From Bdellovibrionota bacterium (lineage in GTDB: Bacteria; Bdellovibrionota; UBA1018; CAUJDS01): a DNA stretch of 64,000 nt. How positions within the stretch are numbered: the stretch's first letter is position 1; every line of letters starts with the position of its first letter. The DNA lies in the NCBI GenBank assembly GCA_963169695.1, contig CAUJDS010000060.1, forward strand, positions 64,780-128,779. The letters are read 5' to 3'. The translations under genes were made by a program, and so were the position numbers. Positions 12,511 through 63,542 of the stretch are shown here, piece after piece. Below the pieces are notes generated by a model. That model saw only the letters and a program-made list of their open reading frames with translations, was not told where the DNA came from and made no database searches.

Positions 12511-12539
12511 TTGACAACCCCCTGGGTTGGGAATACTAA
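12511..12539 (+). promoter_or_regulatory. Candidate sigma70 promoter driving the thi riboswitch leader
   Basis: TTGACA (12511-12516), 17-nt spacer, TACTAA (12534-12539), immediately 5' of the riboswitch aptamer. Confidence 0.45.
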
Positions 12540-12545
12540 ATTCGA

Positions 12546-12645: not shown

Positions 12646-12650
12646 TCAAT

Positions 12651-14898: not shown

Positions 14899-14930
14899 GT
14901 GAAAATAAAAAAAGGAGGACTTCTTTCAGA

Positions 14931-16061: not shown

Positions 16062-16144
16062 TTTGAATCTCCGTAATAGAATAAAGTTCGACTTATTTAA
16101 TACACTAAAGAAGTAAATTCAAGCCTTCGTATGGCGCGGTGGCT

Positions 16145-17437: not shown

Positions 17438-18138
17438 AGTTTGGGTCTCCCAAGTTCAAAATACTCTTTTACGCCGGAATACATCGGCCCACCCAGTCTG
17501 GCTAGTGGATGAAGCTGTGCAAAATCGATGTGTTCATCCTTACTGAGAAACCCGTCTGCGACATGCATCACTAGGATTTCACCAAGAAATAACGTGACCG
17601 AACCCGCCTTGCCTTCACCCAATTCAATGGCGCGATAGAGTTTGCACTCCATTTGGATAGCCGATTCGGCAACACGCGATGGTTGAATCCGGGTTGAAGC
17701 CACTGCCGTGAGGCCCACCTTTTTCATTTCATCCACTCCGCGTGGGTAATTGGCGGAGCACTGGTGCAGGGGCTCTGCCATCCATTCATGAGCAGAATTG
17801 ACGACAAACTCTCCGGTTTCTTCGATGTTTCTGCAGGTGTCCTTCTTAGACCCATTTGGCATTCGAGCCACCGAGATCATGACGAGGGGAGGGCTGCTCG
17901 ATACGGCATTGAAGAAACTAAATGGAGCAAGGTTGCCATTTCCATTTTTGTCGCAGGTACTAACAAAGGCGATGGGCCTCGGTACGACAGAACCCACCAA
18001 GAGGCCGTAGACTCGATCCACCGGCATCGCAGATAGATCAAAGTCCTTCCACGTTTGGTAGGGAACGACGAGGGTATCTCCTGGTTTCCAGTTGGGATTG
18101 GGGTTTTGAATTTTTTTGGCAGGAGTCAGTGGGACCAT
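17434..18138 (-). CDS. Flavin reductase-like FMN-binding protein
   Basis: [24 protein letters not shown] motif of the flavin reductase domain. Stop overlaps the hmgA start (ATGA). Confidence 0.75.
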
Positions 18139-19061
18139 TCCATCATTCTTTCTAATGGCCGCAAGGCGCGCAATCGCAAGTCTTCGGTCATGGTGATTTC
18201 GGGAGATTCATCGCGGAGAGTTGTGTAAACTTTTTCGAGCGTGTTGAGCCGCATAAAGGGACATTCATTGCATGCACAGGCGTGATTGGGCGGAGCTGGG
18301 ATAAAAAATTTCTCGGGGTGATTCTTGCGCATTTGGTGCAGGATCCCTTCCTCCGTTGCCACGATGAAGGCTGCTTTTGCACTTTTTCCGACGTAGCCTA
18401 GAAGCGCAGAAGTGCTTCCAATAAAATGTGCTAGCTGAAGGAGTTCGGGCTCGCACTCGGGATGCGCAATAAGTTCGGCATCAGGGTGGCGAACTTGAAG
18501 ATCAATGAGTTTTCGTTGAGAAAAAGTTTCGTGAACGATGCAGGCGCCCTGCCATTTGAGTAGCTTCCGGCCAGTTTGTTTTTCTACCCAAGCACCAAGG
18601 TTGCGATCGGGAGCAAATAGAATGGGGCGATCCTTAGGAACGCGATTGACGATTTGCACAGCATTGCTGCTCGTGCAAATGACATCACTTTGCGCTTTGA
18701 TCTCGGCGGAACAGTTGATGTAGCTCACTACAAAGTGGTCGGGATGCTGGTTGCGGTAAGCCCGAAACTGCTCGGGAGGGCAGGAGTCAGAGAGGGAGCA
18801 TCCCGCGCGAAGGTCCGGCATCAGGACCTTCGATTGGGGGTTGAGGATCTTGGCCCCTTCCGCCATAAAGTGGACTCCACAGAAAAGGATGATTTTGGCT
18901 TGAGTCTTCTGGGCCGCTCTAGCGAGAGCCAGGCTGTCGCCGATCTCGTCCGCCAGGTCCTGAATATCAGGCTCCTGGTAGTAATGAGCGAGAATGATTG
19001 CGTTTTTTTCTTTCTTGAGGCGGGCAATCTCTGCAAAAAGGTCGTGCTTTTGATTCGTCAT
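18126..19061 (-). CDS. nadA: Quinolinate synthase A
   Basis: [21 protein letters not shown]-terminal signature. 311 aa. 13-nt overlap with the downstream flavin reductase gene. Confidence 0.9.
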
Positions 19062-42921: not shown

Positions 42922-45654
42922 TCAGCGAGGTCTCGCCGTTAGGAAGTGAATGAGTTGCTGGTCTGCGCGGAGAAAGGTGTTTTCAATTTCGTTTCGGCGC
43001 GTCCATGACACTCCTGGTATTCCAGCGTGGGTGACAGTGTCCACAAAACTTGGCTGAAGTTGATAGAAGCGATAACTTGTCACCCGGGTATGCGTATCGT
43101 CTACGCGATCAAGGACAATCATACCGTTGCCACCTAGGATGGTGTCTTGTTGCACAGTGCCGAGCTGAGTGGGAGTGCTCGCAGTCACATGCCACGTTAT
43201 CCAAGTGTCATTGGAATTTTGCTGCGTATTCAACACCTCCCAATGGCGGGATTCGCTCAAGCCCCAATCACGATACAGTACCTGAGTGTCAAACTGCTGT
43301 GGCGTCCCTCCAAGGTAATTCGATTCTGCATAAGAGTTGCCCGATTCAGCCATAGCGTTGATTGAATCACCACTTCGAAGCTTTTCCAAGACGCCTTGCG
43401 TAGGAAGCGGGACGACCTGTGAAACTCGAGTCCCAAAAAAGGTGGAAGGATCGTAGGTGCTCAGCAAAGGTTGAGATTGAAGCGTTGTTGAGTCGATTCG
43501 AAACGACTCGGATACTATTGTAGAGACAGCACTGACATTAGCTTTTTCCACAAAAGATGCATGGTCCGCGATGGAAGAGGCCATCCAATTAGTGACCGGG
43601 GGAGTAGCTTGGTCTGGAATGTCTGCTTTGACTTGAGCAATGAGGGCTCGTGCCTCGGCGGTTGCCGATGCCAATTCTTCATCCGAAAAGAAAATCGCTG
43701 AACCGTTTTCGGGCTCCGAAGTCGCCTTTCGCAATTCTATGGCAAGGTGTCGTAGGAGCTTGCCCTCGTCTTCGACGTTGAGGCTTCCAATAGTATACTC
43801 TCGACTCGTAAAGAAAAGAGACGCTAGGACCGTTGCGAAGAGAGCGCCTTTTACGTATCGCGCGGTTCCTCGCAGCCCGCGACTGAGGAGAGATGCCGAA
43901 TTTCCATCAGGAGTCATTCCGAGGGTAATATTGAGGTTAGGTAGTGAAGTTCGATTGTGCCTAGATTCAGCAACGAGATCTTGTAGGGCAAGTACACGCC
44001 CATCACGCGCTGTTCTCTTCTCAATGCTCAGACCTTCCGTGCTGCCTATAAGAGCAAAGGGGATAGAGGTCGTTTGATTTTTCTCAGAACGATGAATGGA
44101 CTTCATCTCCTTTTTTGAAAAAACAATGATGTCATTCATCAGTCCTCGTATTTCTTGGAGGACTGCATCGAGATCCTTTTTGGACTGAATTGCCGAGGTG
44201 CTTAAGGGACCATCTGTGGATTGATTGGCTTGGAGATTTCCGACTTCATACTGTAGGCGATGTCTTTTTTCGATTAGGGTAGCAAAAAGTCGATCGAGGT
44301 GACTGTGGCCAATAGCCGGATTTCTTCCTGTGTTTCTTACATGTTTCTCAAAGAGCTTTTCAAAAATAAGGATGGCCTCTGCCTTCTTCTCGTTGAGTTG
44401 ATCTCTCAATTCGCCCAAATCCTTTGTTGAGCTCTCTTGCATCGCGAGTACAAGAATCTCTTGATGCTTTTTGGCTAGATCATTGAGAATGTTCTGAATG
44501 GATTGTGCACGGTCATTCTCTTCTTTATGGGTTTTTTCTTGATTTTCAAGTGCCGCTAAGTAGGTTTCGGCCTGGTGCTTTAGTTTTTCAATTTCGGATC
44601 TCTTTTGGGGATTTGTAATTCCTTGTAGGGCATTTTCGTATTCGGTAATGTCGGTACGGTATTTTTCCTCAGCAACTTGATTGGCCTCAAAAATTGCTAA
44701 ATTATTTCCAGGAGTTGTTACCGAAAACAGCATCATCTGAAGGCGATGAAGTTCTACTTCAAACATCAAGTCACGCGAAAGGACTTTGCTTCGAAGGTAG
44801 AAGGCTTCCAAAGGGCGAACCCCGGGAGAACCAAGGACCGGGCTGATCCACTTACGAGTAAGGTAGTAAGCAAATCCCGCTGGCGCAGCATAAAACAGTG
44901 AAGCAATTCCATAGGTGGTAGCGGCTTCTGAGCCAGCGACTTGTCCATAGATGAGTGGCGCTCCACCAGATAACGCCGCAAACATCATAGTAGGCCAGAA
45001 ATAAGATAGTGACGTCTTGTTGCCCGGGTGCTGTTTGCGAAATTCCGACAACTCATTCCGAGCAACGAGATCGATATTCATCGGTACGAGGAATTCAAAG
45101 ATCAAGGAATTCCAGTACTCAAATTGCCCAAAGGTCTCTAGACCAAAAGCCGAAGCACCTGTGTCGACAAATTTGGCAACTGCTTTGCCAACATAGGTTG
45201 CGATCGCGTATTGCGATCCGCGCGTGAACAACGGTTCTGTCAGCAGTCGATGGACCCGAAAATGGGGATCACTTTTGATGCGTCGGAGTGAATCAATAAT
45301 CGGTGTGGTGTAAGCCAGAAACGATCCAAGGATAGGTCGAATAAGGGTGTAATCGCCAGCCGCCTTGGCTGCCTTGCCGATTTGGTAGGACCAGTAGGCG
45401 CGTTGAAAGTGGCGCCCGCGCCAGGACCAAAGCTGCTTTTGGGCCAGAGCTTTGGCTGCATTGCTCTGAGGCGACTGCGCCTTGGGGGGCTCCGAAGGTT
45501 TATTGGGATCACTGAAAGCACCTGAGCATTCGTCTGATGGTCCATCCCCAGTCGGTGATGCGTAAGCCAGTACCGGCAGACTCAAAGTCTGAATGATAAA
45601 AAGCCCTAAAAATAGGAGGTAAGAAAGTGCCTTCAATGGATACTTGACTAACAA
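42922..45654 (-). CDS. Large hypothetical membrane-anchored protein with central coiled coil (910 aa)
   Basis: Signal/anchor plus several hydrophobic helices in the first ~300 aa. Long heptad-like charged region in the middle. Start is non-ATG (TTG) and uncertain. Confidence 0.5.
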   Translation of the reverse strand: MLVKYPLKALSYLLFLGLFIIQTLSLPVLAYASPTGDGPSDECSGAFSDPNKPSEPPKAQSPQSNAAKALAQKQLWSWRGRHFQRAYWSYQIGKAAKAAGDYTLIRPILGSFLAYTTPIIDSLRRIKSDPHFRVHRLLTEPLFTRGSQYAIATYVGKAVAKFVDTGASAFGLETFGQFEYWNSLIFEFLVPMNIDLVARNELSEFRKQHPGNKTSLSYFWPTMMFAALSGGAPLIYGQVAGSEAATTYGIASLFYAAPAGFAYYLTRKWISPVLGSPGVRPLEAFYLRSKVLSRDLMFEVELHRLQMMLFSVTTPGNNLAIFEANQVAEEKYRTDITEYENALQGITNPQKRSEIEKLKHQAETYLAALENQEKTHKEENDRAQSIQNILNDLAKKHQEILVLAMQESSTKDLGELRDQLNEKKAEAILIFEKLFEKHVRNTGRNPAIGHSHLDRLFATLIEKRHRLQYEVGNLQANQSTDGPLSTSAIQSKKDLDAVLQEIRGLMNDIIVFSKKEMKSIHRSEKNQTTSIPFALIGSTEGLSIEKRTARDGRVLALQDLVAESRHNRTSLPNLNITLGMTPDGNSASLLSRGLRGTARYVKGALFATVLASLFFTSREYTIGSLNVEDEGKLLRHLAIELRKATSEPENGSAIFFSDEELASATAEARALIAQVKADIPDQATPPVTNWMASSIADHASFVEKANVSAVSTIVSESFRIDSTTLQSQPLLSTYDPSTFFGTRVSQVVPLPTQGVLEKLRSGDSINAMAESGNSYAESNYLGGTPQQFDTQVLYRDWGLSESRHWEVLNTQQNSNDTWITWHVTASTPTQLGTVQQDTILGGNGMIVLDRVDDTHTRVTSYRFYQLQPSFVDTVTHAGIPGVSWTRRNEIENTFLRADQQLIHFLTARPR

Positions 45655-45828
45655 CTCTAGACATCTGAAGCAATTGAACTTTCTGTTAGATGTTGGTGAA
45701 CGCAGCCTTGTGATTAAATCAAATGAGTTGCGGTCACGTTTCGTGGCCCTATCCTATAAGCAGACTTCCTCACAGCTTTGTGCTTTTGTCATTGATCGAC
45801 ACGGTTGAATCCCGTAAACAAGCCGTCC

Positions 45829-46914
45829 ATGAATCATTTTAAATTTCTACTTTTGCTGGCGGTCTTTGGCCTGGGGTCCTCTGTTGCAAATGCTCAGTGG
45901 GAGCTTCCCGCCGAAACCGCTAGGTATTTGGGTGCCGCTGATGGCCGGCTCCCCATTGAAATCCGGGATATTCAAAGAATTATCGAACCCATTCGAATCG
46001 AGCCTAAGCTTCTAGCTTGGGGATACTCTGGCGCGGTTTTTGGACCCTATGCTGGGCAGGTATTCAAGATCTCCAATGAAGTCTTCGCGGCGCTTGATCA
46101 GCTTCCCCTTGAGAAGCCTTCTCACGACCAAACAAAGGTTGCGAGAGACTGGGCTCAGTTTGCACAGATACTGCAAAGGTTGAAGCGAGAGCAAGTTCAA
46201 CTATACCAAAGAATTGATGTTCAAAGTCCTCATGATGACGTTGTCGTAGCTCAGCTCCTTGCAAAATTTACGGGCCAGACTTTTCCAGCTGCGCCAAAAT
46301 GGATGACGCCAGATGGTTTGGCGAGCGCGGCTCCGTACTTGGTTGGCCAGACACTCGGTCAGACGCTTCAGCAATTCAATTACGGTGGCGTGAATCGAAA
46401 TGAACTTTTTGCGGAGCTGGCAAAATGGCTTCGACTCTCCAACAAGCTCGTCACTGAGTGGGGCGTTGCTCTTGATCTTCAATCTCCCGATAATTTCATT
46501 GTGGCAGGTAGTGCTCGTAAGCCAAGGCTGGAATTGGTCGACTTTTCGTTTGTAGAACCCGACGCGAGCGTGAAAGCATTTTACAAAAAGGCCAATGGTA
46601 AAGCTGTTCCAAAATTTCCTTTCAAAGGTGAGATCTACACCTTCCCAGCAACCACGGTACCTTACTTCCCGGTCATTGGAAGACTTTGGGATCTCCAGGC
46701 TGGCCAAAGGGACGATCTTATGAAATCACTCTACGGAAAGTTATCGCCAGATGAATTGGAAGCATACTATCGTGCAATCCCCATTCTTCAAAACACCAGA
46801 AACCCCGCTTTGAACGAAAATGCATGGTTGGTAGGTTTGTCGTGTTCAGCGGCTTTCCGTGGATCGGCTGCAAAAAAATCTCGAGAAGTTCAAGGTAGAC
46901 TCTGGAATCCCTGA
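45829..46914 (+). CDS. Hypothetical secreted protein
   Basis: ATG at 45829 gives the signal peptide MNHFKFLLLLAVFGLGSSVANA. The track ORF starts at TTG 45805. Confidence 0.5.
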   Translation: MNHFKFLLLLAVFGLGSSVANAQWELPAETARYLGAADGRLPIEIRDIQRIIEPIRIEPKLLAWGYSGAVFGPYAGQVFKISNEVFAALDQLPLEKPSHDQTKVARDWAQFAQILQRLKREQVQLYQRIDVQSPHDDVVVAQLLAKFTGQTFPAAPKWMTPDGLASAAPYLVGQTLGQTLQQFNYGGVNRNELFAELAKWLRLSNKLVTEWGVALDLQSPDNFIVAGSARKPRLELVDFSFVEPDASVKAFYKKANGKAVPKFPFKGEIYTFPATTVPYFPVIGRLWDLQAGQRDDLMKSLYGKLSPDELEAYYRAIPILQNTRNPALNENAWLVGLSCSAAFRGSAAKKSREVQGRLWNP

Positions 46915-46932: not shown

Positions 46933-46961
46933 AAAACGTGTCTCACACGTTTTCCCTTTTT
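46933..46961 (+). terminator. Rho-independent terminator-like hairpin
   Basis: AAAACGTGT-CTC-ACACGTTTT is a perfect 9-bp stem, followed by CCCTTTTT. It lies 19 nt downstream of the preceding stop. Confidence 0.45.
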
Positions 46962-47108
46962 GGCCCGAGGCGCGTCATAGTTACGCCCAACCCAGCAAGG
47001 CGCGTTTGAAACTGAAAAGTCCGTGCGGGGATAGGGAAAGCGCGGCTGTGAAGCGGCGCAACCGAAGACAGTTGAGCGATAGCTAGCTACGTGATAAGTC
47101 ACAAAATT

Positions 47109-47453
47109 ATGCCAAGGGACACTTACAAATTTCAAAAACTTGAGCCGTCCTTTCGTAGAAAGGCGCAATTGGTTGTTTCAGAAATGGAGCGGCGTGGTTG
47201 GCTGATTCGTTTGGTTTGGGGACTGAGGACTCAGGAAGAGAATGATAAATTGTACCAGCTAAAGCTGGCATCAAAAAATAGCCAGCATCTTTCCGGCAAG
47301 GCGCTTGACCTAGTTGATGTGAGAGTTGGATATACGACTAACCGAAATCACCCATTTTACATGGATCTAAAGGAAATCTCAGAAAAGGAAGGACTCGTAT
47401 GGGGTGGATCTTTTCGATCAAAATGGGACCCATGTCATATTGAGGCCAGGTGA
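47109..47453 (+). CDS. Peptidase M15-family (L-Ala-D-Glu / D-Ala-D-Ala type) zinc peptidase, small endolysin-like form
   Basis: SQHLSGKALDL (SxHxxGxAxD zinc-ligand motif) and WDPCHIE (DxxH). About 115 aa. No signal peptide. Confidence 0.7.
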   Translation: MPRDTYKFQKLEPSFRRKAQLVVSEMERRGWLIRLVWGLRTQEENDKLYQLKLASKNSQHLSGKALDLVDVRVGYTTNRNHPFYMDLKEISEKEGLVWGGSFRSKWDPCHIEAR

Positions 47454-47926
47454 GCGTGAGTATTTTTCGAGCGTCTTGGAATTTATTGATTCTTACTTAT
47501 CTTGTTTCATTTTTCGGTAGCTGTACCAGTCCTCAAATAAATACTGATCAGCTATGTCACGTTGAAGAAGGTTGGTACCTAGTAAAGGCTGATATGTCCT
47601 ATAGCTGGGAAAAAGGGGAGCAGCACGGCTACTATAGGGCACTTCACTTTAGAGCCTTAGGGGACCACGCGGCCGATAACGTTCAAGTTCAAAAACTTGA
47701 AGCTATGGAGCAAAAAGACGCCGTTACTTCTGAGGTCGAAACTCGTCTCAAGCCGATAGAGTGTAGGCAAGTTGCCGAACCGGGGTATGCAGGAATAGTA
47801 ACAGATCTAAAGTTTGACCAAATCCTTAGTCCAAAAAAAAATGAGCCTCATGTGAGGGCGCTGGTTGTGCATTATTTGGACAAGCTGACGCAACAGCAAA
47901 AGCAATATCGTTTCGAAATTCAATAG
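47450..47926 (+). CDS. Hypothetical lipoprotein
   Basis: GTG start overlapping the M15 stop (GTGA). Lipobox LVSFFGSC. Confidence 0.5.
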   Translation: MSVSIFRASWNLLILTYLVSFFGSCTSPQINTDQLCHVEEGWYLVKADMSYSWEKGEQHGYYRALHFRALGDHAADNVQVQKLEAMEQKDAVTSEVETRLKPIECRQVAEPGYAGIVTDLKFDQILSPKKNEPHVRALVVHYLDKLTQQQKQYRFEIQ

Positions 47927-48068
47927 GCGAGTTCTATTGAGATTTGGCTTGGTTTTAATTACCTCTCGCGCGGAGTGTTATTGCTAGCTACCTCCCATCT
48001 ACGAAAGTGAAATGTTCTGAGTTAGTCCTACTCGGATAGAGAGTCATCCTAGTGGTAAGGAAGTGGAT

Positions 48069-48284
48069 ATGTTGGAAACCAATTTATCAATCGGAGCAGG
48101 ACTTCGTTGGCTTCACCGAAAAAAAGAACTCTTGGAGAGCCGCCTCAGGCGCGAGGTTACCTGGGACGAGACTATACGTGACTACAAGGGTCTAAGAGGA
48201 AAGAGCCAACTGCAGCAGAAAAGAGTCCTGGAGACATTTGAGAAATATCGCACGGAGCTCCTCGATGAAGCATCGACTCGTTAG
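48069..48284 (+). CDS. Small hypothetical protein (about 71 aa)
   Basis: ATG with AAGGAAG Shine-Dalgarno. Charged, helical-looking sequence. Confidence 0.3.
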   Translation: MLETNLSIGAGLRWLHRKKELLESRLRREVTWDETIRDYKGLRGKSQLQQKRVLETFEKYRTELLDEASTR

Positions 48285-48876
48285 TGTATTTATCTTGGCT
48301 TTTCTTTCTCTTTCTCTTCGGAGACCTTATTCCATTGGTATGCTGAGCGACGACTTCGGGATTGTTACACGTGAGGACGTGGAGGAAATTAATTTTGGTA
48401 TCTACAAAAAAATGAACTGGATGCCAGCCGAAGCGGACTACAATGGCCCCCCTGTTTGGCAATGCCTACAGCCGGATGAAGTTTCGATAGGCTGTGACTC
48501 CTCCGATCTTGATGCGAGTGACCAACCTACTGCCGCCCCTGATTTTACTATTCGAGAAGGGCACTGGACGCATCGCTTATACACGCGCCGTTTCTTTGGT
48601 CTGGAGACGTGTGAGGAGTGGGTACGCGAATGGAGAGCCGTTGTGGAGAATGAACCGGTCGTTTGCATTCTAGGAGACCCAAGCTTCGCGTCTGAGGAAG
48701 AGGTTCGGACACCCTCTGATCCTCGCACTTATTGGATTCTTCACCGAATCAAGACTTATCACGGACAATGGTCGTATTTTCTGAGAGGTGGGGACTCTCG
48801 ACTTTATAGCGGGCCAAAAACACGAGGATATGTGGTACCTCCATCTGATGAGCAGTCCTTCAGCCTGGGGCAATGA
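48265..48876 (+). CDS. Hypothetical secreted protein
   Basis: Signal-like MKHRLVSVFILAFLSLSL. Cys-rich mid region. Confidence 0.4.
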   Translation: MKHRLVSVFILAFLSLSLRRPYSIGMLSDDFGIVTREDVEEINFGIYKKMNWMPAEADYNGPPVWQCLQPDEVSIGCDSSDLDASDQPTAAPDFTIREGHWTHRLYTRRFFGLETCEEWVREWRAVVENEPVVCILGDPSFASEEEVRTPSDPRTYWILHRIKTYHGQWSYFLRGGDSRLYSGPKTRGYVVPPSDEQSFSLGQ

Positions 48877-49873
48877 AACCCAATTCTTCTTTGAGATTAC
48901 GCCAGAAAAAGTCCTGCAAAGTGTGGAGGACGCCGGCTACCTTTGTACAGGGCGATGTACCGCAATGGGTAGTTTTGAGAATCGAGTCTACGATGTGGAA
49001 ATTGATCTGGAAGGATTGCCGCCTGCGCAGACCATGAGCGATCGGTTTCGTATCGTGAAGTTCTACCGTCCGGGCCGATGGACGGAGGCTCAGATCCTTG
49101 AGGAGCATGGGTTTCTGAAAGATTTGGTGGAACAGGAAATTCCCGTTGTCGCGCCACTTCCTTTTAAGGATGGGTCGACGCTGCGAAAGGACGCGAGCAG
49201 CGGAATTTATTACACGCTCTTTCCACGAGTGGGGGGGCGATCTCCTGATGAACTCGACAAAGAACAACTGACTCGAATTGGTCGACTCCTTGCGCGGATT
49301 CATCAGGTCGGTGCAATGAGTCCAGCGCTACATCGAATAGAATTGAACGAAAAAACCTATGGCTCCGATCACATCAATTACCTCCGTACTGCAAAGGTGA
49401 TGTCGCCTGGACTTTGGCCGCGCTATGAGGCTGCCGCTCAACGGGTGATTGATACCTTTAAGAACGGGTATGCCGAGCTACCCAAACAACGGATCCACGG
49501 AGACTGTCATTTCGGCAATTTGCTTTGGGGACCTCAAGGGCCGTTCTTCTTAGATTTTGATGATTTTGTAATGGGTCCGGCTGTTCAGGACTTTTGGTTG
49601 ATGATTCCAGGTCATGATGAAGAAGCGCGAGGCAAATTGCGAATCCTGTTAGACGGGTACCAAGAGCTTCGTGATTTGCCGATGGGATCCCTGCGCTGGA
49701 TTGAGCCCCTTCGTGGACTTCGGTTGATTCATTTTGCCGCGTGGATCTCCCATCGTTGGAATGATCCGGCTTTTCCCAAGGCCTTTCCTCAGTATGGCGG
49801 TGATCGCTACTGGGAAGATCAAATTCACAACCTTGAGGAGCTTCCTCTCGAAGAAGGATACTGGCGAGCCTAA
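48848..49873 (+). CDS. srkA: Stress-response Ser/Thr kinase SrkA (YihE/RdoA) family
   Basis: FENRVYDVE, FYRPGRWTEAQILEEH, HGDCHFGNLLW and DFDDFVMGPAVQDFW closely track the E. coli YihE sequence as I recall it. Confidence 0.75.
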   Translation: MSSPSAWGNETQFFFEITPEKVLQSVEDAGYLCTGRCTAMGSFENRVYDVEIDLEGLPPAQTMSDRFRIVKFYRPGRWTEAQILEEHGFLKDLVEQEIPVVAPLPFKDGSTLRKDASSGIYYTLFPRVGGRSPDELDKEQLTRIGRLLARIHQVGAMSPALHRIELNEKTYGSDHINYLRTAKVMSPGLWPRYEAAAQRVIDTFKNGYAELPKQRIHGDCHFGNLLWGPQGPFFLDFDDFVMGPAVQDFWLMIPGHDEEARGKLRILLDGYQELRDLPMGSLRWIEPLRGLRLIHFAAWISHRWNDPAFPKAFPQYGGDRYWEDQIHNLEELPLEEGYWRA

Positions 49874-50943
49874 GCGGCGTTGGTCTCAATCGCCTGCCAG
49901 AGGTAGGGAAGTCCCCTGATTTCGATCCCTTTTCTTTCGTTCCATTTGCCTTGGTCGTCTTGAAAAAATTCAATCACAGGAATGAAGCCTAGCTTCTTAG
50001 GGTCTCGCACCCAAATAGCCACTCCACGGGTATGCCGCAGGCTTTTGAGTAGATCTCCTTTGAAGTCGAGGAGGCGCTTCAGTTGTTCTTTGAGGCGGGT
50101 CAGGGATTCTGGGCTGGCCCATTTCTCGTAATCCTTCATGGCATCGTTGTAGTCCGATAGGCTTGCAACGTATTCCGCATGTTTTTCTTCGCCGAGTCTT
50201 TGAACCACGTCCTCAGGCAGGAACTTAAATCTTGGCATATCGCCTAAGACTAGGACCGCGAATCCAACTTCCTCTCCCGATAGATGATGATGCTCAAAAG
50301 AGCGATCTGACTTGCGCAAGAAATTCTTGATGGGAATGGCGTGATCCGGATCCAAGAGTCCGTCGGAATTGATGGTGCGGAGCGATCTTGCGATCAAGAG
50401 CGCATGAGGAGAGTCCTCCGAGTGATCGCCTTCACGCCAAATAACTAAGTCCGGTTTGGTGACTCCAAATTTGTGAGAGCCTGGTTTGATGGATTTGACG
50501 TCGACGTAGTGGCCTTTTTCAACCCAGGCCAGCACGTCACTCGCATTTGAGAAAGCATCTAACTTCTTTCCGCGAACTTTATTCGATGCTCTTGGGTGGT
50601 CCCCTTGTTCTTCCATTTGGTCTTGCATCGCTTCGTATTCGTCTCGGTCGCTTTCCCAGCTGCCGACACACGAAGCCAAGCTATTCAGTGGAGCCTGCGA
50701 GGTAAGAACCACGCCGAAAAAAAATACTCCCGTCAACCAGTCCAAACGCAGTTGTTTATGAAACAATGCAGCTTCCCCCAAACTAAGTTGAAACCATCCA
50801 AATCCACGACCTTGTTTTTGGTAACGAGAAGAAGGGTCGAGGTCAACTTTTTTTACCCGATGGGAAGAGATTTCGATAAGATGCCGCGATGGGCGAACCA
50901 AACGGCAATGAGCATTTAGCGACTGGCAATGAGATTCGACCAC
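49870..50943 (-). CDS. Hypothetical His/Asp-rich probable periplasmic or lipoprotein
   Basis: Internal signal/lipobox-like VFFFGVVLTSQAPLNSLASC. HHH, DHSEDSPH and DPDH clusters. The true start is probably downstream of the GTG at 50943. Confidence 0.45.
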   Translation of the reverse strand: MVESHCQSLNAHCRLVRPSRHLIEISSHRVKKVDLDPSSRYQKQGRGFGWFQLSLGEAALFHKQLRLDWLTGVFFFGVVLTSQAPLNSLASCVGSWESDRDEYEAMQDQMEEQGDHPRASNKVRGKKLDAFSNASDVLAWVEKGHYVDVKSIKPGSHKFGVTKPDLVIWREGDHSEDSPHALLIARSLRTINSDGLLDPDHAIPIKNFLRKSDRSFEHHHLSGEEVGFAVLVLGDMPRFKFLPEDVVQRLGEEKHAEYVASLSDYNDAMKDYEKWASPESLTRLKEQLKRLLDFKGDLLKSLRHTRGVAIWVRDPKKLGFIPVIEFFQDDQGKWNERKGIEIRGLPYLWQAIETNAA

Positions 50944-51995: not shown

Positions 51996-53399
51996 ATGCG
52001 ATTGCCTAAGATTCACGGTGTTGTATCTGTCATCCTCATTCTTGCCCAACTCGTTTTGCCGCTTTCCGCGCAGGCAGGAGACCCCATTGATTGGAATAGC
52101 GCTCCAACCATTCGGGATAGAATGCAGGAATGCGCGCTCTTCCTTTCACTTACTCAGAAAGACCCTGACGGAAAATGGCGCCTCAATGACTCGATTGGAG
52201 TGAGGCTTTCATCCAGGTTAGAACGGCAGAGCATCAGAGAATCCTTGCAGGCTGCAATTGCTGAAAAAGGAATCGAAGAGGTACAAAAAGGGAAGATCTA
52301 CGCAACCGGGGTCGAAATGCGAGATCACAGGTCTAAGCGCAACGAAGTCTTTGAAATAGCTTCAGAACTTGGACTGAAGCTGCGTCGCAATCAAGTCGTC
52401 GTCATGTCCGTCCCTAGCAAAGTAGTAGAGTTGCTTTCTTTTCGGGCTTTGGTTAGCGTCTGGGAGAAACTAAGGTATTGGGCCCCGAGCCTTTCTCGTC
52501 ATTTTCAGAAGCCTCGTTGGGATGAAGCCTTTCATAAAATATTTTCTACAATACCGGTAGAGATTCCTACCCTAATTATGGTGTATCGTGACCTTGCACC
52601 CGCAGACGCTCATGTCGTTGCAGCCATTCACACAACCATTCTTTTTTCCTATTATCTATATACGAAGACTGTCAACAATTGGATGCAGCAACCGGGCATG
52701 AAGAACGCCGTGCCTATGCTGCTCAAGCAATTGGCGATGTCTACGCCTTTTGTTGTCAATTTCAATGTCATGTACAATATGGACAAGATACGGGCATTTG
52801 CTGGAGCAAACGGAATTCAGGCAACCTTAGCTGAGTTTCCTGAGCAGGTTGCTACGTTTGGCGCCACTCAGGGATTGACGGTAGCGCTTCAAACCATCTT
52901 TTATACTGTCCTTATGGGAAAGCGTATTGGACCTTGGATTGATTCCAAATCCGATCCTCGACAAAGTGTTTCCGTACGATCAGCGCAAGCATGGGTCACG
53001 GCGCCTTTTTTGGCCGCTGATTCTTTCTTTATTGCTATGGCTTCCTCAGGGAAGGATCCGCTCTGGTCCTTAGACCTCCCTTACGGGACCTTCAGTATTA
53101 ATCCAGGTCACCTCTTGCTTGCCGGTTTGACCGCAGGAAGTGCCGTGATCGCAAAGCCCTATATTCTTGATCCATTTTTGAGATTTTGGATGTGGGGAGA
53201 AGATCATGTTGGGCCAAAATGGCGAAGGGTGAAGGCTGGTGCCTTGGACTTTACAAAAAACTCAGTTCGATTTTTTTCTAACTTGGTTGGGATTGATGTT
53301 TCACGATTGTTTAAAGAAACCGTCGAATCCAACGCAAAGGACGATGCGAAAGAATCGGATGAAGAGGGTGGCCAGACGCCTCCTACCTCAGGAATCTAA
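51996..53399 (+). CDS. Hypothetical membrane protein
   Basis: Signal peptide MRLPKIHGVVSVILILAQLVLPLSAQA. Several TM segments in the C-terminal half. Confidence 0.5.
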   Translation: MRLPKIHGVVSVILILAQLVLPLSAQAGDPIDWNSAPTIRDRMQECALFLSLTQKDPDGKWRLNDSIGVRLSSRLERQSIRESLQAAIAEKGIEEVQKGKIYATGVEMRDHRSKRNEVFEIASELGLKLRRNQVVVMSVPSKVVELLSFRALVSVWEKLRYWAPSLSRHFQKPRWDEAFHKIFSTIPVEIPTLIMVYRDLAPADAHVVAAIHTTILFSYYLYTKTVNNWMQQPGMKNAVPMLLKQLAMSTPFVVNFNVMYNMDKIRAFAGANGIQATLAEFPEQVATFGATQGLTVALQTIFYTVLMGKRIGPWIDSKSDPRQSVSVRSAQAWVTAPFLAADSFFIAMASSGKDPLWSLDLPYGTFSINPGHLLLAGLTAGSAVIAKPYILDPFLRFWMWGEDHVGPKWRRVKAGALDFTKNSVRFFSNLVGIDVSRLFKETVESNAKDDAKESDEEGGQTPPTSGI

Positions 53400-57377: not shown

Positions 57378-60300
57378 TTACTTTCTCTTTTCTCGTTGTT
57401 CTTCTAACCAACGAGTAGGATTGATGCGAGTTCCGCGGTCGATCTTCCAGTCCACGGACTCTAGCACTTTGCCGTCTTTGTCGAGAAGTTCAAAATGATC
57501 CAGGAACCATCGTCGTGTCAAAATATAAGAAAAATCCAAGTTCTTTGTGCCATTTGCAGGAGATTCGATTGGCAGAATCCTGCGGACCACTTTGATTTTT
57601 GCAACATCCTGATAAATTGGATTTCCTGGATCTTCCTGAATACCTACAATCACCGAATGCAGAAAGGCACCTAGGCTAGTATGAGGGTCAAAATCCAAGG
57701 CTGTCGGCTCCGATGGCTGGGGCAGGGGAGGCGTCCATAGGCCAAAGTAGCTTCCCGCTTTTTTGGCCAGTGCAGTCCAAGTGCCATCAAGCGCGTTTCT
57801 TTCTTCCGCTAGATTATGGAGCAATTCATCCTCCGATAGAGGCTTGCCTTCTTTTTTTCTTTTCTCTGCTTCGACCTTCTTGGGATCTAGCCAAAGCGAG
57901 GGAATGGCTTTCAGGGGGTCCGGCAAATCGGACTCTACCGTCGGCGTCATCACAAAACCGTCTTCGATCACTAAGTCAGTGCCGTCCTTCTTTTTGGCTG
58001 GGAGCCGAATGGCAAATATTTTGGGTTCGATCTGTTGAAATCCATCAGGACCTAGAATGAAGAGCACATTCTGGTGCCTTCCAATCACAACGACGCTCTT
58101 AAGCAAAGGTTCGTTGGGATTCATGGGATTGCGCAGGTACTGTTTGTAAACCCAACCCGTGTTTTCGAGCAGCCAATCAAAGCCCCAGCCGCTCTCGGTC
58201 ATCTCTCCAAGGACCTTCTGCCATAGGGGTTCTAGGTTGAAAGGATCGTGATCATCTTCCTGATCTTCAGGAGGTAAGTCGGCCGTCTCGGTTCTTTGCG
58301 TAAAGACGATGCCTGAAGGAATCGTCTCGCCGCCAAGATTCACTCCGCGGTCGAGGATGCCTTTCTCACGATCGCGCTCCTTGCTTAGTGCTACGAGCTT
58401 CTTTTCAAGTGGAGTGAGGGATTCTTCCAACATGGGCTTGAGGTACGCACGAGGGTCGTCGGAGCGCATTATTTTGCTCTCAAATGCTCGGTGGCTTGCT
58501 TCGTGCGGAGCAAGGCTAGGTTGGGTGTCGGAAACAAACCAGCTCTTGATCCAATGAGTCCATGTCTTGTCCTCGGGTTGGGAGGCTCCCTTTTGCTGCG
58601 CGAGTCGCACAAGGCCTCTGCGTATATCGTCAGTTTCAAGTCGAAGATTTTTGTACTGTTGGTCAAAGATCTTACCTTCACCTTGAGTGAGCTCTTCCTG
58701 GCTCATGCCCAGAGCTTCGACTAGGTCTTCGAGGGTCATTTTATTTTCTGGATCGACGAGTTGTATTTCGTCAAATTTCAGACCATCCAAGAAGTCACCT
58801 GCATAACGTGCTTCGTCCGGAAAGCCACTAGCCATCATGGTGATTTCGCGTACGCCGTTTTTCTCAGCTATAGCTAATTGCTCCATGATCTTGTCGACCT
58901 GGGGTTGTCCGATGAATTGCGCTCGCGGGAATCCGGCGGCCGCATCTTGCACGCCTTTGTTGATCAGGCCGTCTTTTTCGGTCAGTTCATTAAATAGCGC
59001 AGCTGAAGTGAATCGATCCACGCCCGCAACAAGAAGCTGTCCTGCGGCTCCGGGTATTCCGCCGAGTTTGCCAAGGCTAAGTTGGAGAGGCGCAGTCGCC
59101 ATGGCAAAAGGAAGTTCGAAAACATTGCCATAGAGTATAGAAGTCTTGGCATAGTTGCTGGCACTCATCGCACCATTGACCGAAAAGTCTCTCTGACCAC
59201 TGACCATGATTTGATGTGCGGTCGCGAGCGATCCTGACCAAAGCAAGGTGAAGGCCGATTGCGTAGCCATCGCCCCTTTCATTGAGCGAGATTGAAGGGC
59301 AAAGGGCATAAGAAATACAAGCATTCCCGAATTGCTCATTCGGTGAAGGAGGATTTCATTGAAGTCTTTATTGTCTAGGTTGAAATCGACCTTACCGTCA
59401 CGGGTGAGCAGATCTCCGGCCATTCCTGCGGTCCACTCAGCAAGCAATCCCCAACGGGCATACTGCCAGTATTGTGGTCCACGAGAGCCCAGAGCTGCAC
59501 GATAGGTTGCTGATCCCACTCCATTGACTAATTTGGAGGCGCCTTTGACAAAAGTCTTCACCGTAGCGATGGGCATTCGTAGGACTTTGACTGTGCGAAG
59601 CCCACGTAGCGGATCCATACCTGATCGGAGTTGGTAGCGGACAAGCCACTGTGCCAAAGATTCGCCTTGATTGAAGGTGGGGATTTTTTCTGCTGCGTTT
59701 CGGCCTGCCTTGATAAGGGTCATAGAAGCGGGACCATTATTCTCACGTTGAATGGAGCGTAAAAGTTCGAGACGGTTCCCGTCGGCGTGGATGCTGGCCA
59801 TCCGCATCACCTCAGGATGTCGACCGAGGACGGCATTCTGCCTTGCGAGTTGGAGGAGTTGTGTCTCGGAGTGCAGGCTACGAATAACGCCTTCTGCGAG
59901 CTTTCTGCTTCTGCCGATTTTCAGTAGGTCCATGTAGCTCGCATCTCGCAGGTTGCGGTAGTTGCGAATCAATCGTATCAGCGCCCGTCCGCGAACTGAA
60001 AACGCCTGAAAAAACTGGCGGAAGGGATTTTGGGTAAGCTTGATATCTGCTGCATACTGGAAGAAAATACGAAATCGGTTTCCAACCTCCAGCCAATAGT
60101 CGACTTCACTCTGTGTCGCCCCTGGGATTGAAAAACGCGCCAACTCAGCATTTTCCAGAAAAGCAGTGTGACCTAGCCTGCTGGTTTCGATGTGATTGAA
60201 GGCTCGTTGGTTAATGGCATTAGGTGTCGCCAATTTCCGAGCCCCCTCGTCGATGCTGCGACTCACATAGCTTGCGTAGGTATCGGCCTGTGTGCGGCCT

Positions 60301-63300
60301 AAGCTTTGCTCATAGCGCCGAGTCAGCTCTTGATGCAGATAGGGATGTTCGTGGCGCAGACGGTTCAAGAATTGGTATTCGGCTTCCTTTTTTGCAGCAA
60401 GCGAGGTTGTCCGCGGTGCAACCTGCTTTAGGTAGCCCTGATTTAAGTCCGTCAAGGCCTGATAGCGTTTTTGAAGCTGAGCTTCCACGCCAGGATTTCG
60501 AGCGAAGAGCTTTTCTAAGCTGCGAGCACTCGCAAGGTCTACACGGTACTTCTTGAGTGCGGTAATCAAGCCCGGATCCAAGGAGCCGCTGAGGTCTAGG
60601 TCTGCCAAGGTCTGGCCAGAAGCATTTCCGCTCTTAGAGAAAAGCTCCATAAACTCTTCAAAATCCTTCGTGGTCATTCCCTTCCAGGTATTGCCAGTGG
60701 CACGAGTGGTTTCGGCGACGTCGAGCATTTCTTCCACGCCATTTTGTCGCATAAAGTGGAGAAAGTCCTCAAACTCGGGATGGGCTTGAACCGCTGCTCG
60801 AATTTGTTGTACCCGGGATTGGGAGAGTTGAAGGGTGCTGTATGAAACAGCGGTTTCTACATTGACGGTTCGAACCGGCCATCGAAATGGCCAAAGCGGA
60901 CGATCCCACCGTAGTGGAAACTGCAAAGCATACCTTTTTCGTTTTACGGTTTCGGTGACGTTGAAGCCATCCGTCCCATAGAAGTCATTTAGTGTGAATC
61001 GGGGTTCGACGGTGGTCGGTGTTGTGGTTATTTTGACCGATGAGACAGGAGCGTTGGGATCTCCGGGGAGTCCTGCCGGCGTTTCGATTGGCATAATCTC
61101 AGCAACGAGGTTACCTGGCTCTAGTCCCTTAAAGTATTTGGATCCCGTTACTTCAAAGACCACATAGTCCGAAAAGCTTGGCTTAGGAGCCATTGCTTGA
61201 ATGCCATTGCGAAGGGAGTTGCGAAAGGGAATGAGGCGCTGAAGCCATCCATCGGTTTGAATCCAGTTGCCAATTCCGCCTCGAAATCCAAGTCGGTTCT
61301 GAATAAATCCATCACGCCAAAACCATGATGTATCTGCGCGGTAACGTCTCCAAAGTTCTCGGTAGGTCTTTGGAAAATATTTCTTAAGATCGGTCACTAA
61401 TTTGGAACGATATCCCGCAAGTTCTTGGGCGGGGATGATTTGCTTTCCGCCAATCCGCGCTTTGGCTCCTCGGATGCTGACTACATGATCTTCGATGAGT
61501 TGTTGGAGTTGATCAAAATTCTTCTGTGCTATCTCTGGTCGAAATGCTGGACTTCCCACTCTTCGAAGTTTAGCCAGGTCGTCGATTCCTTCTTCATACA
61601 TTCCGTACTCTTTTAAGTATCTGAGCTGTCGGTTGTGGCTAGCGGGATCTAAGGCGAGACGAAGCCGATTGTCTTGTACCTCGCGGACGGCTAGGCGCTT
61701 GTCCATGTTTTTTAGAAGGTGATTAAATGGAATGTTTTCTTTGATGGTTCCAACTACGGGCACCGCGCTCTTACCTGCAGCAACACGAAGGTAAAAGAGA
61801 GAAGCCGCTTGGACGCTGATCAAGCCCAGAGAGAGGTACCAGTTATTTAGAGCTTCCTGGCTCATGAGTAGGTTCTGATCAACAGTAGCAGGGTCTACAT
61901 GGGCCAAGGGCTCTCCATTGCGGTCGATGGTGTACTGAAGGGCTTCAAAGAGATGAGGAAGTTCTCCTATGGCGTTGAAGTAAAGTTGGCTAGATGCACC
62001 TGTGGTGAGAGCAAGGTCAGTAACGAGCATAGCCATGGCGAGCCATTCTGACGGAAAAAGAAGCAGAGTGAGCCCAGTGCCAACTCCAGACCCTATTAAG
62101 GACCAATGCAAGAGGCGATTGGATCGCTCAGTCTCAGCCATCATGGAATTATAGAAGGGGAGGAGATTGTCAAAACTTGCTTTGACTTGCTCGGGCTTGA
62201 AACCAAAGCTTGAGGCGAGCATCTTTTGAAGGTTCTCTGAGGATTGAAAGACTGGAATAAGAATAGAGAAATAGCGCAAATAATCTTCGGCATTGCCAGA
62301 TTCATGAATTTCTTCGTCGGAAATGGTTTGTTTCTCAAGGCTCGAATCGAAGAGAGCGTTCTCGGGGAGCATGTGAAGGACACGAGAAGTCATACCAAAG
62401 AATCCCTTGGGCGTCTGTCTGCGGGTCATAGCCAGAAGGGATGTGTTGAGATGAAGCATCCGCTTTTCCCATGCCTGGTAGTGAAGCTCGTCCGCCACGG
62501 AAAGGAGATTTCGGAGGCCTGAACTGAGGTCGTCGTCTTCTACTGCATGAAAAATGCTTGATTTGAGGTCTTCGAGAGGAACTTCTGAAATTTCGTTGCG
62601 TAGAACGATTTCGAGATTTTTAGGAAGCGTGCCCTGATTCCAACGAAGGATCTTTCCAAATTCTGGATTGCGGCTATTGATTTGTAGGTACTGATAAAAG
62701 GCGAGGGCAGCGTAAGCCTCATAGAGAAAAGGAAGCTTGAGTTCTTTGCGGACGGGATTGCGGTATTCACCCAAGATCTGGGTCAGGTGAGCAAAAAGCC
62801 TGGTGTTGATTTTATTTGGCAGGATGTCCGAAGGAATCGGTGCCGCAAGAATGCGGTTACTGTCCTTTAGAAATTCTTGCTGCTGCTTGGATCGAATTTC
62901 AGCGACGACCGCGGCTGGAATATTTTTCCCCTGAGCCAGAACTCGGTCATACTCCCAGACCATGAGAGAATCGATCATGGAATAGATCAGTGCGGTTTGC
63001 CCAAGGGGAGAGGTACCGTGAAAAAGGTTTTTCTGGTCCCGCGTGGTAGTTTTGTCGTCTTGAATCGTCAGAAAGCGCTGAAAATCTGGAAAGAGCTCCT
63101 TTGGATAAGCTCGCTGGTAAGCCTCGAGCAAATGTTCGGTCTTGCCTTGGTTGTAGGCAATGGCCTTATCGCCAAAGAAGTTTTCGCCATACTCAACATG
63201 CTGCCTTCGCGTGATCAGAAGCAATGCTGTGGTGAGCTTGGCCGCGGCCATCAGCGGCAGCAATCCGTTTTTGCCGATTTCGAGCGATTGAGTCTTATCT

Positions 63301-63542
63301 TTGACCTGTGCAAGAACTTCCGTACCCGCCACCGCGGAAGAAGGAGCGGCAAGCGTGGACTCTAAGGTCAATCGTCCACCATCGTTGGAAGCTTCTGGGG
63401 CGCTGTCTTCTTCCGTAGTTTCGTCAGAAGCCTGTGCGTTGGAGGTGGGATAAAAAGGGGCAATAGAACTGAGTGTGAAAACCCAAAGTAGAAGAAGCGA
63501 TAAGGTCCACTGTCGATTGGAAGAGAGATTATGCTGATTCAC
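57378..63542 (-). CDS. Giant hypothetical secreted/membrane-associated protein (2054 aa)
   Basis: Uninterrupted 6165-nt ORF. N-terminal Sec signal (WTLSLLLLWVFTLSSIAPFYPTSNAQA). Internal hydrophobic segments. ATG overlaps the upstream ORF by 4 nt. Confidence 0.6.
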   Translation of the reverse strand: MNQHNLSSNRQWTLSLLLLWVFTLSSIAPFYPTSNAQASDETTEEDSAPEASNDGGRLTLESTLAAPSSAVAGTEVLAQVKDKTQSLEIGKNGLLPLMAAAKLTTALLLITRRQHVEYGENFFGDKAIAYNQGKTEHLLEAYQRAYPKELFPDFQRFLTIQDDKTTTRDQKNLFHGTSPLGQTALIYSMIDSLMVWEYDRVLAQGKNIPAAVVAEIRSKQQQEFLKDSNRILAAPIPSDILPNKINTRLFAHLTQILGEYRNPVRKELKLPFLYEAYAALAFYQYLQINSRNPEFGKILRWNQGTLPKNLEIVLRNEISEVPLEDLKSSIFHAVEDDDLSSGLRNLLSVADELHYQAWEKRMLHLNTSLLAMTRRQTPKGFFGMTSRVLHMLPENALFDSSLEKQTISDEEIHESGNAEDYLRYFSILIPVFQSSENLQKMLASSFGFKPEQVKASFDNLLPFYNSMMAETERSNRLLHWSLIGSGVGTGLTLLLFPSEWLAMAMLVTDLALTTGASSQLYFNAIGELPHLFEALQYTIDRNGEPLAHVDPATVDQNLLMSQEALNNWYLSLGLISVQAASLFYLRVAAGKSAVPVVGTIKENIPFNHLLKNMDKRLAVREVQDNRLRLALDPASHNRQLRYLKEYGMYEEGIDDLAKLRRVGSPAFRPEIAQKNFDQLQQLIEDHVVSIRGAKARIGGKQIIPAQELAGYRSKLVTDLKKYFPKTYRELWRRYRADTSWFWRDGFIQNRLGFRGGIGNWIQTDGWLQRLIPFRNSLRNGIQAMAPKPSFSDYVVFEVTGSKYFKGLEPGNLVAEIMPIETPAGLPGDPNAPVSSVKITTTPTTVEPRFTLNDFYGTDGFNVTETVKRKRYALQFPLRWDRPLWPFRWPVRTVNVETAVSYSTLQLSQSRVQQIRAAVQAHPEFEDFLHFMRQNGVEEMLDVAETTRATGNTWKGMTTKDFEEFMELFSKSGNASGQTLADLDLSGSLDPGLITALKKYRVDLASARSLEKLFARNPGVEAQLQKRYQALTDLNQGYLKQVAPRTTSLAAKKEAEYQFLNRLRHEHPYLHQELTRRYEQSLGRTQADTYASYVSRSIDEGARKLATPNAINQRAFNHIETSRLGHTAFLENAELARFSIPGATQSEVDYWLEVGNRFRIFFQYAADIKLTQNPFRQFFQAFSVRGRALIRLIRNYRNLRDASYMDLLKIGRSRKLAEGVIRSLHSETQLLQLARQNAVLGRHPEVMRMASIHADGNRLELLRSIQRENNGPASMTLIKAGRNAAEKIPTFNQGESLAQWLVRYQLRSGMDPLRGLRTVKVLRMPIATVKTFVKGASKLVNGVGSATYRAALGSRGPQYWQYARWGLLAEWTAGMAGDLLTRDGKVDFNLDNKDFNEILLHRMSNSGMLVFLMPFALQSRSMKGAMATQSAFTLLWSGSLATAHQIMVSGQRDFSVNGAMSASNYAKTSILYGNVFELPFAMATAPLQLSLGKLGGIPGAAGQLLVAGVDRFTSAALFNELTEKDGLINKGVQDAAAGFPRAQFIGQPQVDKIMEQLAIAEKNGVREITMMASGFPDEARYAGDFLDGLKFDEIQLVDPENKMTLEDLVEALGMSQEELTQGEGKIFDQQYKNLRLETDDIRRGLVRLAQQKGASQPEDKTWTHWIKSWFVSDTQPSLAPHEASHRAFESKIMRSDDPRAYLKPMLEESLTPLEKKLVALSKERDREKGILDRGVNLGGETIPSGIVFTQRTETADLPPEDQEDDHDPFNLEPLWQKVLGEMTESGWGFDWLLENTGWVYKQYLRNPMNPNEPLLKSVVVIGRHQNVLFILGPDGFQQIEPKIFAIRLPAKKKDGTDLVIEDGFVMTPTVESDLPDPLKAIPSLWLDPKKVEAEKRKKEGKPLSEDELLHNLAEERNALDGTWTALAKKAGSYFGLWTPPLPQPSEPTALDFDPHTSLGAFLHSVIVGIQEDPGNPIYQDVAKIKVVRRILPIESPANGTKNLDFSYILTRRWFLDHFELLDKDGKVLESVDWKIDRGTRINPTRWLEEQREKRK

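Follow-up and report, generated by a model that had tools for sequence, protein, structure and literature searches.

A small M15-type zinc peptidase and its overlapping exported partner as a candidate type VI secretion effector-immunity pair in contig CAUJDS010000060.1

Several peptidoglycan-targeting effector-immunity pairs are carried by Hcp, including the Tae/Tai families (such as Tse1-Tsi1 and Tae4-Tai4) and Tlde1-Tldi1. Here, a two-gene cassette was analysed in a stretch of 64,000 nucleotides (nt) of contig CAUJDS010000060.1 (assembly GCA_963169695.1, positions 64,780 to 128,779 of the forward strand); the whole of this stretch is called the window. The first gene encodes a 114-residue zinc peptidase of the M15 class without an export signal, and the second, which overlaps it, encodes a 158-residue exported partner. 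It is fairly probable that the two products are a peptidoglycan endopeptidase effector of the L-Ala-D-Glu type, of a size that suits Hcp and delivered through a type VI secretion system (T6SS), and its periplasmic immunity protein.

Peptidases of this class have been linked to the T6SS before. TagX of Acinetobacter and Burkholderia is a T6SS accessory L,D-endopeptidase with demonstrated cleavage of the L-Ala-D-Glu bond (PMC5061870; PMC13584744). Moreover, 'Peptidase M15 domain only' genes in the T6SS toxin loci of Neisseria are in-silico effector candidates (PMC10210955), WHIX-M15-like T6SS effectors have been predicted (PMC12135965), and Tpe14 of A. baumannii is an M15 / L-Ala-D-Glu T6SS candidate (PMC6833914). 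At Salmonella SPI-6 VR1, a 32-residue remnant of an L-Ala-D-Glu endopeptidase lies before a 146-residue open reading frame (ORF) with a signal peptide (PMC10469887). This kind of effector is already known; the 114-residue family and the family of its partner are unannotated.

A signal-less zinc peptidase and its exported partner

The enzyme matched the Pfam family Peptidase_M15_4 (PF13539) with 41.9 bits (gathering cut-off 25), and PF13539 was present in all of its homologues. An earlier note on this DNA had pointed out the motifs SxHxxGxAxD and DxxH in an ORF of about 115 residues and had proposed such an assignment as a check; both motifs are real, at residues 58-67 and 107-110 (Table 1). 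S58, H60, G63, D67, D107 and H110 are invariant in an alignment of 30 family members, so that the zinc ligands H60, D67 and H110, whose non-conservation the note had named as a refutation, are kept throughout. The zinc-binding residues and the catalytic Asp also align with their counterparts in Ply500, where DYPH stands opposite DPCH. The ATG at 47109 was preferred to an alternative start (GTG 47091, which would add six residues), because all homologues are 110-114 residues long and their alignment begins at the ATG of the window. The window enzyme is full length with every catalytic residue intact, and an identical enzyme was found in three further metagenome contigs.

The AlphaFold2 model of the enzyme (pLDDT 95, pTM 0.86) places it in the LAS / Hedgehog-N-terminal-like fold. 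Its best fold match in the Foldseek search was ChiX (TM 0.74, E 4e-7); a probability of 1.00 was reached with ChiX, Ply500, LysECD7, LysB4, LdcB and VanXY, and EndoT5 of phage T5 was also among the matches. The profile of the family alignment matched only L-Ala-D-Glu peptidases in the PDB, namely Ply500, LysECD7, RB49, ChiX, LysB4 and T5 (E 5e-14 to 7e-7), and endolysin families of PHROG matched the enzyme at E 4e-11. These indicate that the likeness to phage L-Ala-D-Glu endolysins, including that of T5, had been rightly noted at the level of family and fold. By homology, the bond predicted to be cleaved is most probably L-Ala-D-Glu in peptidoglycan, since the closest characterised relatives and TagX cleave there.

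Export signals were surveyed by hydrophobicity and lipobox pattern in 30 enzymes and 19 partners. In the window enzyme, the 11-residue Kyte-Doolittle hydrophobicity peaked at 0.86, in line with the lack of an export signal stated earlier; the peak was at most 1.5 in 28 of 28 enzymes of 110-124 residues, and none of them has a hydrophobic N-terminus. The partner, on the other side of this topology, bears a signal. Its N-terminus (MSVSIFRASWNLLILTYLVSFFGS-C25-TS) has R7, a hydrophobic core (hydrophobicity 2.43) and FFGS-C25. A lipobox pattern modelled on PROSITE PS51257 fits at Cys25; the 'clear lipobox' of the earlier note was slightly generous, because Phe replaces Leu at position -3.

The pattern fits only 5 of the 19 partners surveyed; in the remainder, a type I signal peptide or an N-terminal anchor is seen instead. 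No full-length partner examined is without one or other kind of signal or anchor. The feature conserved across the partner family is predicted export, not lipidation. Tat hitch-hiking of the enzyme on the partner was considered and rejected, as the partner N-termini have a single Arg (MSYRNA...) and not a twin-arginine motif.

The model of the partner (AlphaFold2, pLDDT 78.8) is all-beta with seven long strands. Nothing better than E 0.09 or TM 0.4 was found for it in the PDB and among the viral folds of BFVD, and the sequence had no match in Pfam, NCBIfam, PHROG or PADLOC. A C-terminal transmembrane segment was not found in the partner. Scores on the hidden Markov model (HMM) of the partner family range from 118 to 197 bits, and all of the named members that were found are called hypothetical.

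Table 1. Positions of the two genes, their motifs and the flanking elements in the window
Feature	Position	Strand	Remarks
Terminator-like hairpin followed by a T-run	46933-46953	+	Consensus scan, pattern match only; after the 369-residue gene (stop 46914)
12-nt imperfect direct repeat, left copy, ATAGCTAGCTAC	47079-47090	+	Flanks the low-GC cassette; significance doubtful
Gene of the 114-residue zinc peptidase without a signal (Peptidase_M15_4, LAS fold), putative peptidoglycan endopeptidase effector of a T6SS	47109-47453	+	ATG start
SxHxxGxAxD motif codons, SQHLSGKALD, residues 58-67	47280-47309	+	Zinc ligands H60, D67; read from the sequence
DxxH motif codons, DPCH, residues 107-110	47427-47438	+	Catalytic Asp D107, third zinc ligand H110; read from the sequence
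GAGG, putative Shine-Dalgarno-like element within the final part of the enzyme gene	47442-47445	+	4 nt before GTG 47450; suggested by the sequence
GTGA, partner start codon over the enzyme stop (TGA)	47450-47453	+	4-nt overlap
Gene of the 158-residue exported partner, putative periplasmic lipoprotein immunity protein	47450-47926	+	GTG start
Signal peptide and lipobox, MSVSIFRASWNLLILTYLVSFFGS-C25	47450-47524	+	Cys codon 47522-47524; Thr at +2
Right copy of the 12-nt repeat, ATTGCTAGCTAC	47980-47991	+	54 nt past the partner stop codon

Conserved pairing, T6SS linkage and enzyme decay

Word-indexed searches recovered about 35 enzymes of 110-124 residues and 12 partners; an exhaustive search of 1.84 billion representatives with the partner HMM returned 84 clusters (at 50% identity). 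A metagenome scan seeded on the divergent partner of the window confirmed 0 loci, and 3 loci were confirmed with a typical member first. The two-gene cassette is carried by about 16 lineages, with a signal-less enzyme and a signal-bearing partner throughout. The carriers include Ca. Manganitrophaceae (Nitrospirota), several Gammaproteobacteria, Thioalkalispiraceae, Mariprofundaceae (Zetaproteobacteria), Binatia and unclassified metagenomes, which is a patchy spread across phyla and in varied genomic contexts.

An overlapping partner homologue lies directly 3' of the intact enzyme gene at nearly every locus. The overlap of the next gene with the enzyme stop that had been read in the window is present as described (Table 1). 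It is 4 nt in the window and at L056, and the gene calls give 22 nt for L004, L006, L007, L048-L051 and L053; at L054 it is also 22 nt if the partner starts at the conserved MSYR. Since every lineage with an intact pair keeps the order of the genes and an overlap of 4 or 22 nt, the pairing is not due to chance, and the question of synteny in relatives that the earlier note had raised is answered in its favour. Two Bacteroidota loci (L008 and L011) have the enzyme, and no partner homologue was found at them. Enzyme-partner fusion proteins were rejected as a candidate: the longer partner homologues P0075, P0094 and P0113 carry other extensions, not M15.

The pair lies inside T6SS clusters of three unrelated layouts, and the enzymes there are about 50-58% identical to that of the window. 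In Ca. Manganitrophaceae the order is TssL-TssM-TagF-TssA-TssB-TssC-[M15-partner]-Hcp-TssE-VgrG-...-DUF2169-DUF3540-PAAR-like. In L052/L053 it is TssB-TssC-Hcp-[M15-partner], then a 9-kb island of small genes and ImpE-TssE-TssF; and in L054 it is FHA-TssJ-[M15-partner]-TssK-TssL-TssM-TagF-PP2C-kinase. The hcp gene thus adjoins the pair in two of the three cluster types. Moreover, a gene with a Tlde1 domain, a family with an experimentally shown T6SS effector, lies 1-6 kb from the pair in L009 and L059, together with its own signal-peptide neighbour.

The enzyme gene has decayed in four lineages. The truncated enzymes keep only residues 71-114 (L014), 76-113 (L015) or 83-114 (L018) and have lost the zinc motif; none of these 5' truncations is at a contig edge, and L014 and L018 derive from one metagenome-assembled genome. 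In one Thioalkalispiraceae lineage (L012, 7983-8322; L058, 9647-9960), the enzyme has a frameshift near residue 50, and it is a real pseudogene rather than a sequencing error because two independent assemblies share it. An intact partner ORF follows the decayed enzyme in L012/L058, L014 and L018; in L015 the contig breaks off within the partner, and just its start is visible. The partners also diverge faster: over 55 lineage pairs, the mean identity was 59.0% for the enzymes and 41.9% for the mature partners (r = 0.69). Decay of a toxin gene next to an exported partner that is kept and evolves faster is the signature of effector-immunity systems. The enzyme/immunity pairing that the earlier note had offered among other ideas is supported by these comparative data (T6SS linkage, topology and enzyme decay), although no delivery route had been named in it.

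From this context we infer all of the functional steps, namely delivery through the T6SS and Hcp, the bond that is cleaved, and inhibition of the enzyme by its partner. The 114-residue zinc peptidase would be made in the cytoplasm without an export signal, and its size of 13 kDa would let it travel in the lumen of the Hcp tube; such loading is suggested by the size of the enzyme and by the adjacency of hcp in two cluster types. The T6SS would then fire the enzyme into the periplasm of a neighbouring Gram-negative cell, where it would cut stem peptides, most probably at L-Ala-D-Glu, and weaken the wall. The overlapping partner gene would be co-translated and its product exported by Sec. In the lineage of the window, the partner would be lipidated at Cys25 and probably anchored in the outer membrane (Thr at +2). 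In the periplasm of the producer itself, it would bind and neutralise the enzyme that arrives from sister cells.

Several observations weigh against an effector-immunity pair of the T6SS. The pair lies in a T6SS cluster in only 3 of the about 16 lineages, and in the others, including that of the window, it is found in unrelated contexts. The position between tssJ and tssK in L054 is one that an accessory factor might equally occupy. In the 64-kb window, which is part of a 263-kb contig, phmmer searches with T6SS proteins from the three cluster types returned no T6SS gene. Moreover, the window partner is the most divergent member of its family (22-38% identical to the others), and it lacks an 11-residue segment in which the other members have nearly invariant residues.

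Some of the homologous loci have further genes of note. The L052 island (10776-18800), downstream of hcp and the pair, contains small genes, several of them with lipoboxes or signal peptides. Among them are three tandem, near-identical 177-residue paralogues (15906-17550) and a second, weak M15-like ORF (13626-14129) that is followed by a lipoprotein ORF; the island has the look of an effector/immunity arsenal. Elsewhere in this T6SS cluster (2686-4435), a gene with a Phage_lysozyme domain lies between two LprI (lysozyme-inhibitor) genes, and the three are probably a second wall-targeting effector-immunity set. The L011 locus (1839-11288), from a metagenome-assembled genome of Bacteroidia, encodes a PG_binding_1-M15 fusion of 215 residues that is 44-51% identical to the family. 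Its neighbours are an Rhs/DUF6531 protein and a LysM protein, followed by ORFs that were judged by eye to be E1-like and ubiquitin-like.

Setting in the window and alternative explanations

The copy of the window is an orphan cassette of low G+C (GC) content, set among housekeeping genes and not near any gene of a T6SS. It is called an orphan because no T6SS gene was found in the window and the genes around it are either ordinary chromosomal ones or unknown: they encode an aminoacyl-tRNA synthetase, HIT, MFS, large secreted unknowns, an SrkA-like kinase and a CDF transporter. The about 3 kb past the window hold a 715-residue unknown and a further, incomplete ORF, but nothing of a T6SS. The GC content of the pair is 44.0%, compared with 49.1 ± 2.2% for the window, and is within the lowest 1.7% of windows of equal size. 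The low GC and the patchy spread are consistent with horizontal acquisition of the pair.

The pair looks like its own transcription unit, because the terminator-like hairpin follows the upstream gene; this hairpin probably marks the 5' boundary of the unit. An alternative partner start (GTG 47456) lies 10 nt after the GAGG element. The flanking 12-nt direct repeat was dismissed, since about as many are expected by chance in 2.5 kb.

This setting would suit a cassette that is kept for immunity only. The host would have no T6SS, the lipoprotein would be selected against M15 effectors of neighbours or prey, and the enzyme gene would be a passenger that is not yet decayed. The lack of T6SS genes in the 64 kb fits with this, and the cassette looks horizontally acquired. 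The same trajectory is also seen elsewhere, for the enzyme decays in L012/L058, L014 and L018 while the partner stays intact. However, the window enzyme is full length with all of its catalytic residues, it recurs unchanged in the three further metagenome contigs, and its overlap with the partner gene has been kept. Retention for immunity alone is unlikely, and it is a variant of the effector-immunity explanation.

Genes of a type II secretion system (T2SS) lie at 396-3882 on the minus strand, namely GspD (TIGR02517, 503 bits) and GspC. The latter matches the NCBIfam equivalog 'GspC_delta' with 170 bits (cut-off 150), which points to the former Deltaproteobacteria.

The GspC 'delta' match is the only hint for a bolder proposal, in which a Bdellovibrio-like predator without a T6SS has captured this T6SS-born cassette for predation. 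This might work in two ways: the lipoprotein might shield the predator wall from the M15 effectors of T6SS-armed prey during attachment, or the signal-less peptidase might reach the prey wall by neither a T6SS nor a holin. The proposal is a long shot; if true, it would link T6SS arms races to obligate predation.

The linkage to T6SS clusters might also be explained by an accessory enzyme similar to TagX, which would open the peptidoglycan of the producer for assembly or firing of the T6SS, with the partner regulating or positioning the peptidase. TagX shares the Pfam domain (pfam13539), it cuts the L-Ala-D-Glu bond and Hcp secretion depends on it, and TagX-like proteins of 285-324 residues were retrieved as distant relatives (25-36% identity). 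T6SS genes occur in the fetched flanks of 25 of them (variously VgrG, TssM or TagF, seldom all three), and the place of the L054 pair between tssJ and tssK would agree with such a role. However, TagX needs two N-terminal transmembrane helices to reach the periplasm, and the 114-residue family has none. The pair is outside T6SS clusters in the window and in most lineages, and enzyme decay beside a persisting partner is not expected of a required assembly factor. TagX-like domains score 32-43 bits on the family profile, whereas phage-type L-Ala-D-Glu peptidases score 50-56 bits. An accessory role of this type is quite improbable.

Little chance is also given to a domesticated lysis module or a ChiX-like (type 10) system, or another unconventional route of export, in which the peptidase would pass the inner membrane by a holin-like pore or a route specific to predators, and the lipoprotein would be a spanin-like helper or an activator. 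Its attraction is that by structure the enzyme best matches ChiX, which in the chitinase secretion system of Serratia is the L-Ala-D-Glu endopeptidase and also has no signal, and that PHROG endolysin families match the enzyme; the 'GspC_delta' gene moreover hints at an ex-deltaproteobacterial host, possibly a predator. However, no holin-like membrane ORF, spanin or phage gene adjoins the pair in the window or at the homologous loci, where the flank inspection suggested earlier was directed at phage remnants and holins. The partner has no C-terminal transmembrane segment and no likeness to PDB or viral folds. The T6SS contexts and the orphan partners would also be left unexplained.

No phage homologue was found by tblastn against 50,697 phage genome records, and a pattern scan of IMG/VR gave no confirmed homologue locus. 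Origin as a prophage remnant was likewise rejected, as the PHROG scan gave endolysin similarity at the family level alone and no close phage homologue; the lysis module or phage remnant of the earlier note is therefore not borne out. Plasmid carriage (tblastn of enzyme and partner against PLSDB) and anti-phage defence (PADLOC) were also tried as explanations, and neither gave a match.

A cytoplasmic housekeeping peptidase (VanX-like or for muropeptide recycling) with an unrelated lipoprotein neighbour is very improbable. The enzyme is without a signal peptide, the M15 dipeptidases of the VanX type act in the cytoplasm, and VanXY and LdcB are among the fold matches, but about 16 lineages from several phyla show strict synteny of the overlapping genes, the nearest relatives by sequence are not VanX but L-Ala-D-Glu peptidases that lyse the wall, and the rare, patchy distribution with enzyme decay in several lineages does not fit.

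Other features of the window were also recorded. Around the pair are proteins of 910, 369, 203, 357, 467 and 2054 residues without a Pfam or NCBIfam match (42922-46914, 48265-48876, 49870-50943, 51996-53399 and 57378-63542), and at least the 910-, 369- and 203-residue proteins have signal-peptide-like N-termini. The SrkA/YihE-like kinase gene (48788-49873; NF008738, 370 bits) overlaps the end of the ORF of the 203-residue secreted protein (48238-48876) by about 30-90 nt, according to which start codon is taken. A thiamine pyrophosphate (TPP) riboswitch (12538-12660, plus strand; RF00059, 57 bits with a gathering cut-off of 54.3) is directly upstream of an ORF that starts at 12651. All of the 12 window proteins that were looked up are singletons at 90% identity, so that the lineage is poorly sampled.

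Significance and comparison with known systems

If the cassette is a T6SS effector-immunity pair, it would define a previously unannotated family of such pairs. The effector would be a minimal LAS-fold zinc peptidase of 114 residues, and its predicted bond differs from the targets of the classical Tae1-4 amidases. The immunity family would have no Pfam model and a predicted all-beta fold without a match in the PDB, and lipoproteins now called 'hypothetical' would be better annotated as immunity genes. The pair would also offer a compact wall-lytic enzyme with a specific protein inhibitor for study, and might serve as a marker of past T6SS conflict in little-known lineages such as Nitrospirota, Zetaproteobacteria and that of the window. 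The understanding of T6SS warfare itself is unchanged by the pair.

Comparison with the phage-type peptidases and ChiX showed the closest solved relatives: Ply500 (2VO9), LysECD7 (8Q2G), RB49, LysB4 (6AKV), EndoT5 (2MXZ) and ChiX (5OPZ). They are of similar size and also without a signal peptide, and the Foldseek TMq was 0.50-0.74 over these six entries. However, those enzymes work with holins (plus spanins in Gram-negative hosts) in lysis cassettes; whereas here a partner with a signal peptide is always attached, and no holin, spanin or phage context was found.

The family also shares PF13539 and the same Zn/Asp motifs with TagX and, in three of its lineages, a genetic association with the T6SS. 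TagX differs in its length of 285-324 residues and its N-terminal transmembrane helices, and it stays in the inner membrane of the producer; it has no cognate exported partner, and its identity to the 114-residue family is 25-36%. Membrane-anchored M15_4 proteins of 285-324 residues were retrieved from Variovorax, Ralstonia, Oxalobacteraceae and Acinetobacter (L020-L047). They fit the published TagX family, and T6SS genes (VgrG, TssM and/or TagF) are present in most of their fetched flanks; at L033, a small ORF that is PAAR-like by eye lies directly after the M15_4 gene.

The candidates from Neisseria, Salmonella, the WHIX group and Tpe14 were compared by their published descriptions. On that level they are similar, as there too a domain of this class is a predicted toxin cargo of the T6SS, with an immunity protein in the periplasm. 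For example, the Salmonella SPI-6 VR1 locus, as described, strongly recalls the truncated enzyme and intact partner of L018. Several of the published candidates are larger fusions (LysM, WHIX, M23), unlike the 114-residue family.

The Tae/Tai and Tlde1/Tldi1 pairs differ from the present one in the enzyme, which is here a LAS/M15 zinc peptidase and not an NlpC/P60-type amidase or a YkuD fold, and in the target bond, here predicted to be L-Ala-D-Glu. The partner in the present candidate pair has no sequence or fold relative among the solved immunity proteins. In their organisation, these systems are alike. A small signal-less enzyme, known or predicted to degrade the wall, is encoded in a bicistron with an adjacent gene for a signal-peptide protein or lipoprotein, and such genes adjoin hcp in some T6SS clusters and also stand at orphan loci. 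Immunity genes, known or putative, are in both cases found as orphans too, and their products evolve faster than the effectors.

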